A stretch of DNA of 64,000 nucleotides from Candidatus Cloacimonetes bacterium 4572_55 (GTDB lineage Bacteria; 4572-55), in the NCBI GenBank assembly GCA_002084765.1, contig NBMB01000012.1, positions 21,084 to 85,083 of the forward strand, read 5' to 3'. Both the position numbers and the translations under genes were made by a program. The notes below the pieces were generated by a model. It was not told the origin of the DNA, did not search any database, and saw only the letters and a list, made by a program, of their open reading frames with translations. Numbering within the stretch: the stretch's first letter is position 1; every line of letters begins with the position of its first letter. Of this stretch, positions 39,147-42,541 are shown piece after piece.

Positions 39147-39761
39147 CTACAAAAACCACCCGGATAACTGCAAATAACACCGTTTTTCCGCATCTGGTTC
39201 GTCGTGTGGGTGCCACCAACGGCAGAGCGAGACACGCAGCAACGCGCCTGCGGGGATTTCTGGGATCGAGTCCGCCACGCCGACATATGACAGATTCATT
39301 TCGTGGGATTTCAGAGAATATCGAGTGCGACCGCGAGCGTTGGTATACAGGATGAGCTCCTCGTCTGGCTGCCAGAATGCGACGCTTTGTTCTGGAATAC
39401 CATTTTTTTCAGAGATATAGAGACTGCCTCCGCGAGATCGATTCAGCATGCCATGAAAAAGTGTGTCGGGACCCCCGGAACTGATCTGCACGCGGTTCTG
39501 CAACGTTTGTTTAAGATCCCGCGCCCGACCCAGATATTCGCTATGGTAAACGATCACATCCTCCACATGTGGAGGAAACTTTTCTTCCTGCGACGGTGAA
39601 AAGTCCATGTCCCACACCTGACCGACCTCATATTTGGTCGTTATCGGCTGATTTTTGCATCCGGGCTTCATCAGTCGAATATTTTTATTGGTATCCTTAG
39701 CCAGAGCTCCCACACAAAATTTTCCGACCATGTGGGTTTTAGCGACAATGAGAACTCTCAT
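39147..39761 (-). CDS. hypothetical protein (204 aa), last gene of the ATPase/DUF488 operon
   Basis: Start ATG at 39759-39761 overlaps the upstream stop by 4 nt (ATGA). The ORF track extends to 39854 but that part overlaps the upstream gene. No recognisable motif. Confidence 0.55.
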   Translation of the reverse strand: MRVLIVAKTHMVGKFCVGALAKDTNKNIRLMKPGCKNQPITTKYEVGQVWDMDFSPSQEEKFPPHVEDVIVYHSEYLGRARDLKQTLQNRVQISSGGPDTLFHGMLNRSRGGSLYISEKNGIPEQSVAFWQPDEELILYTNARGRTRYSLKSHEMNLSYVGVADSIPEIPAGALLRVSLCRWWHPHDEPDAEKRCYLQLSGWFL

Positions 39762-40246
39762 GGCAAAATATGCTCCGTGTGTATGTTCAAATCCATTTCT
39801 AAACGGTCTGTAATGAGAGACCGGTGACATGCTTTCGGATCTTGTTCCACACAAAATAGAACAACAACGAGATCGTGGATCCCAAAGCTATCAACAAATT
39901 TTTGCGCGTTAAAGTCAGTGAGACACGCGGCGTTATAGGCTTTGATAAAAGCAGGGCTGAGCGCGGCTCGATTCCGTTTTGTTATTTTTTGGCACTGGTC
40001 GTCCGCCCGTTGCACATCACGAATCGCGTTGTTGGGTGCCAGGTCTTTGCGATGGATGTAGCCTATGCCTAATGCTTTCAGTTTTTTTTGTAAGTAGATA
40101 CTGTTGACAAAGGCATACTTTGCCCCGCGCATGCCTCGACGATACCGAATGTCGCAAAACAGACCCACGTTATGCCGAATCAGGGCGTCGAAAAAAGTGG
40201 ATTCGTCAAAGCCATACACGCCAATAGTCATAAATTTCAATATCAT
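39758..40246 (-). CDS. DUF488-like protein (divergent paralog)
   Basis: N-terminal MTIGVYGF...CDIRYRRG and shared C-terminal CHRS motif; 4-nt overlap with the upstream gene. Confidence 0.6.
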   Translation of the reverse strand: MILKFMTIGVYGFDESTFFDALIRHNVGLFCDIRYRRGMRGAKYAFVNSIYLQKKLKALGIGYIHRKDLAPNNAIRDVQRADDQCQKITKRNRAALSPAFIKAYNAACLTDFNAQKFVDSFGIHDLVVVLFCVEQDPKACHRSLITDRLEMDLNIHTEHILP

Positions 40247-40812
40247 AATTTCCTCTTATTTTTGCGATAGGATTTCACAGAGCCAAACGTGTGGCCAAAC
40301 AAACCCTGTTGCCCTCCAGTTAGTCGCCGCATCACCTCTGACTGGCTTTTGAGTTCCCCCAGCTCATCAATGTGCCGCACGTCAATTCCGTTCTGAACCA
40401 GTGTTTCACTGATCAACTTACTCCGATGACACTGCTCTGGTTTGAGTTCGGAACACATCAAGGCGACCCGATATTTTTTGTCCAGCGCAGTTGCGAGGCG
40501 AGAAATACCGTCACGATAAAAAGGAGCTCGGCTCAGCTTGGCATAATCGATTTTCTCATTGGTAAAATATTTCATATCATCGGGTTTACCGCCCAACTGC
40601 CGCCCTATAAACAGATACCCGACGCCGTTTTCCTTCAGACGCCTTTCCAATTTAATTTTTGAAAAGTCCTCATTAAACGCGGAAAACGGCGCAGATCGAA
40701 CGTCTGCCACATAGTCGATTCCATAGCATTTTATCAGAGCTATAAAATCGCCAATAGCGCGGTTGCCGTATCCAATAGTATAGATACTGTTCAGGGTATT
40801 CGGTTCGGTCAT
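40243..40812 (-). CDS. DUF488-family protein (YeaO-like)
   Basis: Hallmark N-terminus TIGYGNR...VADVRSAPFS, GVGYLFIGRQLGG, and CHRS motif. Confidence 0.7.
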   Translation of the reverse strand: MTEPNTLNSIYTIGYGNRAIGDFIALIKCYGIDYVADVRSAPFSAFNEDFSKIKLERRLKENGVGYLFIGRQLGGKPDDMKYFTNEKIDYAKLSRAPFYRDGISRLATALDKKYRVALMCSELKPEQCHRSKLISETLVQNGIDVRHIDELGELKSQSEVMRRLTGGQQGLFGHTFGSVKSYRKNKRKL

Positions 40813-40847
40813 TGGATCAAAAGAATGTTTGGAATTTAGGCTTTCAC

Positions 40848-42541
40848 TTATGATGTAGTTTCGACGCTCTCCGCGATTTGAGCGATCGCTTCTAATTTTT
40901 TTTCTATTTCAGGATCAAGCTCACCGGGTTTCGCGAGGCGAGCGATTTCATAATAACGACCTTTATCCATCATTATCGGTTTTTTAAATTCTTCGAAATA
41001 TTTTCGAAACAAACGATTTAACACATCGCTCATTTTCATAGTCTGCCACCACTCGTCGTTTTTATCTTTTAACGCGGCTCCTGGAATATAATCAGGGATC
41101 AGATCATCTATGATTTTGAGACTATGGGTGACGAACAGAGGCATTTCTTTTTCTTGTTTTTCAACATAGCGGATAAGCGTTTCCGGAATCGGCAAATAAT
41201 TTTCGATTTCTCGTCGGCTCCACATCATTTCATATAATTTACCTTTTTCATTTAATTGTTTATCGAGATTGTCAAATAGGGCTATTCCCTGCAATTTGGG
41301 CGCGTATTCCCGCAAGCCGTAAAAATGATCCCGCGCGTGATTCGGATTGTTTCCGACATACTTCACAAAAGGGGATTTCAACGCATCTTTTGATCTATGT
41401 TCCAATACGTCCGCAAAGGCCTGAAGCATGGATAAGTCGGTCGAGCCTTCCAAATATAGAACCCATTTTCTCTGTTCAGCCAATAAATATTGGTCAAACC
41501 CTATAGTTATGAGAGATTTGACAAGTTGACTTGGGGTGTTCACCCTGTGCGGAGTTCCAAGGAACGCTATCACGCAATCTTTCTGCGCCGCTTCATTTAA
41601 TAGCACTTCGGAATGGGTTGCTGCAATCAATTGTGATTTTTTTTCACGAATTGCCTTTATTAACGAACGATAAATCTCTTTTTGTCGAAGAACCTCAAGA
41701 TGCGCGTCGGGTTCGTCCAATAACAAGATTGTGCTTTTGTTGGCATAGATGTAGGCAAACAGCAATAAAACCTGATGAAAACCCCTCCCTGCGCTTGTCA
41801 AATCCATCTTTTTACTCCCTGATTCGACATAGCTCATTGTAATTCGTCCATTAGTCAGATTTAAATTTGGAGGATTCAGTTGAATTCCAAATAAGCACTC
41901 CATTTTTTTGCTAATTCCCCCCATTGCTCTTTATTCTCCTCCCAAATTATCCAACAGAGGTTGCGAAGCACTTCCGCAGTCCTTCCTTGCCCGATTCTGG
42001 TATGAATCGACCCTCTTGACAACAGATCTTCCTCGCTTGCCAATCCCGACATCGGGGGAAGAAACCCGACTCCTTCCTCAAGTGCTTGCTTCGGAAACTC
42101 TTCCCCACGCTTCTCCGTCGTGATTCGCCGGCAATATAGCGCATCCAGATTGGCGTAATAGAATTCAAATCCAAGTTGCCATTTTTCCTCATTGGTAATG
42201 CCCTCAGCCATGATTTCAATCAGAATATTTTCGGGACGATACTTTTTATCGGAAATTTTGACGCTTTCTCGGACGTGGAGTTGGTACCACAGTTGGTTAA
42301 TCGCGGGTAGAGAAATCGAGAGAATATCCGTGCGATGGATCAAAACCCCTACACGTTGTTTTGCTTTGGATTTCAGCCTATTTTCCGCCCATTTCCGCAT
42401 GCCAATCTCCCAGAGAGCGATCGCTTGGAGTGCTGAACTCTTTCCAGAATTGTTGGGACCGACAAAAATTACAGCGTCGCCGAGAGAGATAGAGGCTTCC
42501 TCTAATCCCTTAAAATTTTTAATCGTAATTTTTGTAATCAT
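40848..42541 (-). CDS. ABC/AAA-type ATPase with C-terminal TOPRIM-like (OLD-family / DUF4435-like) region; frame interrupted at an A7 run
   Basis: Walker A GPNNSGKSS in ORF 41876..42541. Walker B LLLDEPDAHL, H-loop ATHS, and C-terminal motifs LYLEGSTD and REIENYL in ORF 40848..41924. The two ORFs overlap by 49 nt; one extra A in the minus-strand run (plus 41893-41899) fuses them in frame. Confidence 0.7.

Follow-up and report, generated by a model that had tools for sequence, protein, structure and literature searches.

The locus considered here lies at positions 39147–42541 on the minus strand of a 64-kb window (the whole stretch of DNA analysed) from Candidatus Cloacimonetes bacterium 4572_55, a metagenome-assembled genome, and appears to hold two separate modules. 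Module 1 (40848–42541) would be the gene for a single-protein nuclease of the OLD type, approximately 564 amino acids (aa) in length, with an N-terminal ABC ATPase and a C-terminal Toprim domain. Module 2 (39147–40812) would be a translationally coupled cassette encoding a DUF488 protein (DUF488-1), a second DUF488 protein of the N3a subclade (DUF488-2) and a protein with two OB folds (DuOB). We consider it probable (approximately 0.6) that the locus reflects the chance side-by-side placement of these two independent, horizontally mobile modules, both of which are candidate defence modules, with the cassette probably processing DNA ends and a role in conflict being somewhat likelier for it than one in repair. 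The original prediction, made from the letters of this DNA, had treated the locus as one candidate defence module of four genes; a connection with defence remains plausible, but the single module gives way to two independent ones.

To assess whether the ATPase and the cassette belong together, an alignment of DuOB relatives was scanned against one genome per species (100,044 species), recovering 146 relatives. Of these, 80 loci were retrieved, and counts out of 80 refer to this set throughout. The loci span at least 11 phyla, including the Chloroflexota, Verrucomicrobiota, Poribacteria, Planctomycetota, Bacteroidota and Latescibacterota, with the remaining groups being the Acidobacteriota, Zixibacteria, Chlorobiota, a deltaproteobacterium and the Alphaproteobacteria. 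In approximately 70 of them DUF488-1, DUF488-2 and DuOB occur in the same order, on the same strand and immediately adjacent to one another, and most of the exceptions are contigs that lack upstream sequence. The ATPase is present in none of the 80 DuOB-centred loci, the sole trace of it being a 42-residue P-loop match in one locus. Similarly, neither DUF488 nor DuOB was found in any of seven distinct genomic contexts of ATPase homologues (50–60 % identity), including that of the closest homologue with usable flanks. These absences, viewed from both sides, indicate that the four genes are not one system, and the idea that they form a co-conserved set is thus not borne out. Three of the seven ATPase contexts sit amongst restriction–modification, toxin–antitoxin or PLD-SNF2 genes. 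With regard to the cassette, no further gene is conserved beside it: the 115 open reading frames (ORFs) that immediately flank it elsewhere match 129 Pfam families, none of which occurs in more than four ORFs.

The 204-aa product, previously described as an unknown protein, displays a full-length match to the Pfam family PF22557, 'Dual OB-containing domain' (E = 3e-24; residues 1–202 of 204, profile positions 1–210 of 210), and some source databases label its relatives 'putative nucleic acid modification protein with dual OB domain'. Alignment of homologues reveals a set of invariant residues comprising C16, R29, the motif P-P-H-x-E-D, S126, W130, R176, S178 and R181; this exceeds what a passive binder would need, and hints at a catalytic or metal-binding site. 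Whilst DuOB is a standalone protein in 43 of the 80 loci, as it is in the window, in the other 37 it forms an in-frame fusion with a full-length RecQ helicase bearing HRDC-type C-terminal regions. The fused ORFs range from approximately 550 to 1100 aa, with five running off the contig end (an example is L062, 7001–9949), and their RecQ parts match the DpdF and PsyrT helicase models of PADLOC, which also match ordinary RecQ. The fusion points to DNA as the substrate of the cassette. No RecQ gene was found within the 64-kb window. An apparently conserved fourth gene downstream of DuOB, suggested by ORF clustering, was rejected, as it consisted of out-of-frame shadows of the fused RecQ. The DuOB family is small, with 923 clusters at 50 % identity among 1.84 billion representatives, and no relatives were found in the phage collection searched.

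Both middle genes match Pfam DUF488, as anticipated, and their description as paralogues holds in a distant sense only: no more than 33 active-site residues align between DUF488-1 and DUF488-2, at 36 % identity. Judged by their sequences, the two are deeply diverged paralogues, each with its own orthologue group (41–57 % identity across phyla), and both groups keep C-x-E-x5-C-H-R-S (i.e. C-x7-C-H-R-S). DUF488-1 opens the cassette in approximately 70 of the 80 loci. The DUF488 fold is Rossmann-like, with the catalytic cysteine at a strand end and the arginine at the start of the next helix, and is cysteine-phosphatase-like; a Foldseek fold search against the PDB returned no significant match. 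DUF488-2 scores 19.5 bits for the Pfam family DUF488-N3a (PF22751; cut-off 27 bits), and most of its orthologues (45–60 % identity) carry PF22751, with one being named 'DUF488 family protein, N3 subclade'. The two ATGA stop/start overlaps of 4 nucleotides (nt) noted previously are both present, at 40243–40246 between DUF488-1 and DUF488-2 and at 39758–39761 between DUF488-2 and DuOB. Due to this translational coupling, together with strict co-inheritance, the DUF488 enzymes probably act as a pair. Work of Burroughs and Aravind from 2023 reportedly groups DUF488 with RapZ-C and DUF4326 in a rhodanese-phosphatase superfamily, and is said to predict that DUF488 proteins process DNA ends in conflict systems; we take this as a lead, which the fold result supports.

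The earlier statement that no comparable system has been described stands for the four-gene combination alone, as the three-gene cassette matches families that are already defined computationally (DuOB and DUF488-N3a). The cassette has the same components, in the same order, as the DUF488-N3a/DuOB association (PF22751, PF22557); it differs in that DUF488-2 falls below the N3a cut-off, and both of its paralogues keep the catalytic motif. There is also a partial likeness to PDC-M45, an untested candidate comprising a three-family cassette with 68 occurrences, which is listed in the supplement of its source as three family codes without annotation; PDC candidates are defined by their embedding in BREX, DISARM or type I restriction–modification loci (Payne et al. 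2024, bioRxiv 10.1101/2024.01.29.577857). The match of DUF488-1 to PDC-M45B covers almost the whole length (2e-47, 159 bits), and that of DUF488-2 to PDC-M45C is weak (35 bits), whereas PDC-M45A finds no match amongst the window proteins or in L062. Consequently, PADLOC would not call a complete PDC-M45 in the window. For DuOB there is no PADLOC model.

In the mechanism that we propose, DuOB would hold single-stranded DNA or a DNA end with its two OB folds, and in the fused relatives RecQ would generate or expose the substrate for it. The DUF488 pair might then jointly use their cysteines to transfer a phosphoryl or sugar-phosphate group at the bound terminus, amounting to processing or modification of the DNA end. 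That such chemistry would serve in conflict with invading DNA is somewhat more likely than that it would serve in accessory repair, given the patchy distribution of the cassette (146 relatives, scattered across the species genomes scanned) and several contexts shared with mobile elements or immune genes. On the 125-kb Rhodothermus marinus plasmid pRMAR01 (L097, NC_013502.1), the cassette occupies 5911–7702, and the genes immediately downstream of it are cas1, cas2, a J-domain gene, cas6, csx2 and csm6. In Sphingomonas pseudosanguinis it is surrounded by an integrase, an IS91 element, and HATPase_c_3, HEPN_Toprim_N, HNH and MobA genes, whilst in the window it adjoins the OLD-like gene. Additionally, DUF488-1 resembles PDC-M45B, and so a candidate class found in BREX, DISARM and type I restriction–modification loci. 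The analysis separates a conserved three-gene unit from a chance neighbour, and thereby sharpens what should be cloned and tested. There is no experiment or solved structure on record for the cassette. As it is rare yet present in many phyla, is without a solved structure or an assayed activity, and carries a RecQ fusion that points to DNA, it appears to be a reasonable target in the search for novel chemistry at nucleic-acid ends, be it in immunity or in repair. Carriers available in culture are Sphingomonas pseudosanguinis DSM 19512, Bacteroides graminisolvens DSM 19988 and, on its plasmid, Rhodothermus marinus DSM 4252.

Turning to module 1, the ATPase, once its two frames are joined, matches the Pfam families AAA_15, AAA_21 and SMC_N across residues 1–320, and harbours the Walker A, Walker B and H-loop of an ABC-type ATPase domain. 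This agrees with the ABC/AAA-type assignment made previously, and the motifs on which that assignment and its companions drew (GPNNSGKS, LLLDEPDAHL, ATHS, LYLEGSTD, REIENYL and CHRS) were all located. By profile search, the class 1 OLD protein 6P74 ranks first amongst PDB sequences (E = 9e-12), and the best PADLOC matches are AriA, NsnB, AbiLi, AriAB and GajA, with scores that are all modest. Searched alone, the C-terminal 248 aa give no Pfam or PADLOC match at E-values up to 10, and hence no match to the AriB or DUF4435 models, the latter having been proposed for comparison with this tail; nor does the C-terminal region alone match any PHROG family. The AlphaFold (AF2) model of a 239-residue C-terminal stretch, from an alignment of 60 homologues, has a predicted local distance difference test (pLDDT) score of 92, and its top five PDB matches in Foldseek all come from class 2 OLD proteins of Xanthomonas and Burkholderia, namely from their C-terminal regions, which contain the Toprim domain (6njv, 6njw, 6nk8; probability 1.00, E = 2e-3 to 7e-3, template-modelling (TM) score 0.41–0.50). 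Far weaker matches to GajA and to a retron Eco2 entry come next (probability 0.2–0.5, TM score < 0.3). Amongst 61 sequences the family-invariant Toprim residues are E358 (within L-E-G-S-T-D), D417 and E438, E440 and N441 (within E-x-E-N-Y), whilst the second aspartate of the DxD motif is not invariant, position 420 being D or E in 36 of the 61. As modelled, the C-terminal region folds as a Toprim domain, in keeping with the TOPRIM-like tail first proposed, and the ATPase belongs to the OLD kind as a divergent, single-gene representative.

OLD-family nucleases (class 1 P2 Old and Thermus scotoductus OLD, 6P74; class 2, 6NJV and 6NK8; Gabija GajA) share with the ATPase an N-terminal ABC-type ATPase followed by a C-terminal Toprim with helical additions, and class 1 OLD proteins, like the ATPase family, are single-gene units. 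However, sequence similarity does not extend beyond the ATPase motifs, the C-terminal region escapes the Toprim, OLD and DUF4435 models of Pfam and PADLOC, TM-scores reach only 0.43–0.50, the strict DxD is not kept in the family (of this motif only D417 is invariant), and the copy in the window is frameshifted. With regard to PARIS (AriA with the DUF4435 Toprim protein AriB, or the fused AriAB), the fused architecture resembles that of AriAB, whose alignment extends from the ATPase into residues 267–450 and covers the motifs EGxxD and ExEN. Nevertheless, the scores of 88 bits for AriA and 69 bits for AriAB, over two partial stretches, are low for a 564-aa protein and are about equalled by NsnB and AbiLi, and the Toprim region alone has no AriB/DUF4435 match; the ATPase is not called as PARIS.

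Two further observations concern the relatives of this ATPase. In the locus L094 (6001–13129), the stop codon of a homologue (51 % identity) has a 4-nt overlap with the start of a gene for a type III-like DNA methylase, and the methylase gene is followed by a nucleotidyltransferase (NTase)/HepT pair and a gene for a ResIII restriction subunit; given the overlap and the adjoining methylase and ResIII genes, the ATPase there may be embedded in a restriction–modification operon. More broadly, there is a large clade of OLD-like ATPases in which the Toprim region is undetected by Pfam, PADLOC and PHROG models, and whose members bear no annotation beyond 'AAA family ATPase', or are even labelled ABC transporter subunits. 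As the Toprim domain is missed by the Pfam and PADLOC models, this clade is under-annotated in defence surveys.

The original prediction counted four co-directional minus-strand genes in the locus, with the ATPase as one of them. Its coordinates and strand are correct, but the ORF listing contains five co-directional ORFs, as the ATPase is split in two by a one-base frameshift. The C-terminal ATPase ORF (99 % identity), DuOB and DUF488-2 (both 100 % identity) have counterparts amongst the database entries for this genome. The two ATPase ORFs overlap, and their frames differ by one base. When each fragment was aligned separately with 24 intact homologues, homology ran to ...WGELAKK in the first frame and resumed at MECLFGIQL... 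in the second, with a gapless junction. This maps the break to the run gca-aaa-aaa-tgg, i.e. A7 at 41903–41909, where a continuous ATPase of 564 aa would result from A8 in place of A7, or from a −1 slip on A_AAA_AAA. As more than 100 listed homologues from many phyla (545–588 aa, 46–63 % identity) are single intact ORFs, the split is specific to the window sequence, and may stem from mutation or from an assembly error, with a switch being less likely. The other homopolymers of at least 7 bases in the window all lie inside intact ORFs, which makes systematic miscalling of homopolymers unlikely and, together with the decay of the adjacent Rrf2 gene, leans towards real decay of the ATPase. Module 1 would then have been interrupted by the loss of one A (A8 to A7), and, due to the frameshift, is probably inactive or expressed at a low level only, via slippage.

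Several observations weigh against the reading of two independent modules with an end-processing cassette, and these are best considered together with the alternatives that they favour. Some concern the local arrangement: the ATPase stop codon is just 35 nt from the DUF488-1 start, on the same strand, and the terminator scan found no terminator-like site in this gap, such that the co-directional ATPase and cassette may be co-transcribed locally (neither the promoter nor the terminator scan was informative, promoter-like sites being fewer than in shuffled controls). This arrangement is what would be expected if all four genes formed one operon-encoded defence system, in which the ATPase–Toprim protein serves as sensor/effector and the DUF488 and DuOB proteins as its partners, and established systems offer examples of ABC ATPases that work with a variety of effectors (Payne et al. 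2024, bioRxiv 10.1101/2024.01.29.577857). Such a system is nonetheless most improbable, given the complete lack of co-occurrence in either direction, the occurrence of each module alone in many phyla, and the fact that the ATPase is frameshifted whilst the cassette is intact. Improbable too, if to a lesser degree, is the proposal that the A7 run is a functional switch that controls the level of a potentially toxic nuclease, be it by programmed −1 ribosomal frameshifting, transcriptional slippage or A7/A8 phase variation. The break does fall exactly on a classical slippery heptamer, the product of a −1 slip is collinear with the homologues, a G6 run lies 7 nt upstream of the A7, and the intact ORFs around the other long homopolymers speak against systematic miscalling. 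However, the frameshift is shared by no related sequence, the G6 run simply encodes the conserved W-G-E, the decay of the neighbouring Rrf2 gene suggests local gene erosion, and the sequence derives from a metagenome-assembled genome.

The remaining points against the favoured reading concern the cassette. The motif C-x7-C-H-R-S of both paralogues is not the canonical C-X5-R(S/T) P-loop, profile searches of PDB sequences recovered no relatives of DUF488-2 or of DuOB, neither DUF488 nor DuOB has a relative of solved structure by sequence, and no biochemical activity is on record for either in the literature searched. Furthermore, most immediate neighbours of the cassette elsewhere are ordinary metabolic genes, meaning that enrichment in defence islands is not established, and the RecQ fusion fits DNA repair equally well as it does immunity. 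These last points suit an accessory repair module, in which DUF488-DUF488-DuOB(-RecQ) would clean blocked ends, for example those with 3′-phosphates or further adducts, where RecQ has unwound a gap or fork. The HRDC-type regions of the helicase to which DuOB is fused in 37 loci, the largely housekeeping nature of the flanking genes (with PriA or DEAD helicases amongst them) and a phosphatase-like fold suited to end-cleaning chemistry all accord with such a role. We nevertheless regard it as unlikely, as the distribution is very patchy (146 matches in 100,044 species genomes, 923 clusters), the cassette is found on a plasmid beside CRISPR-Cas and inside an integrase/IS91/HNH/HEPN island, a close relative of DUF488-1 is recovered within BREX, DISARM or type I restriction–modification loci, and the RecQ parts match the models of the defence helicases DpdF and PsyrT, albeit models that match ordinary RecQ too. 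The opposite extreme is that the cassette is a genuine phage or plasmid immune system, in which DuOB holds single-stranded DNA and two effectors of cysteine-phosphatase fold chemically process or cap the DNA ends on it, beside an OLD-like nuclease under slippage control. This can be held only tentatively, being possible but on balance doubtful; to our knowledge, no characterised bacterial defence system uses DNA-end processing or capping by effectors of this fold. Two independent modules, with a cassette somewhat more probably engaged in conflict than in repair, thus remain our preferred account, and the features that define them are collected in Table 1.

Table 1. Coordinates, within the window, of the features of the ATPase gene and of the three-gene cassette
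Feature	Position	Strand	Details
ATPase N-terminal ORF	41876–42541	−	221 aa; AAA_15, E = 4e-13; Walker A GPNNSGKS at 42437–42460
A7 homopolymer (T7 on the plus strand), break of the ATPase frame	41903–41909	−	Alignment with intact homologues
ATPase C-terminal ORF	40848–41924	−	358 aa; homologous from about 41906 onward
ATPase Walker B, LLLDEPDAHL	41697–41726	−	Motif location
ATPase H-loop, ATHS	41610–41621	−	Motif location
Toprim-type C-terminal region of the ATPase (as modelled)	40851–41567	−	239 aa; AF2 and Foldseek
Toprim motif LYLEGSTD	41436–41459	−	E358
Toprim motif FD	41262–41282	−	D417
Toprim motif REIENYL	41193–41213	−	E438, E440, N441
DUF488 protein 1 (DUF488-1)	40243–40812	−	189 aa; Pfam DUF488, 2e-18; motif CSELKPEQCHRS at 40420–40455
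DUF488 protein 2 (DUF488-2), N3a-type subclade	39758–40246	−	162 aa; motif CVEQDPKACHRS at 39818–39853
DuOB (dual OB-fold) protein, standalone form	39147–39761	−	204 aa from ATG; PF22557; PPHVED at 39558–39575

The locus is flanked, as had been described, by a decayed regulator gene and a peptidase gene, which belong to the Rrf2 family and, by Pfam, to M48, respectively, with the M48 gene on the side opposite the Rrf2 gene. The Rrf2-family gene (38581–38944, minus strand) lies upstream of the sufBCD genes, and what is left of it is divided between two frames, one with an N-terminal piece of 20 aa, MLKFSKRFEYALIVMVDLTE, and the other with the 98 C-terminal aa; the approximately 20 residues between them, which form the winged-helix (wHTH) DNA-binding part, are missing. 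The possibility that the DUF488 genes are conserved housekeeping neighbours of suf was rejected, as the cassette has different neighbours in different loci. Elsewhere in the window, the interval 47009–53636 contains no ORF of at least 300 aa and carries genes for tRNA-Ala and tRNA-Ile side by side (51024–51188, minus strand); from these two features, it is probably a ribosomal RNA operon. A transfer-messenger RNA (tmRNA) gene is located at 23487–23879.

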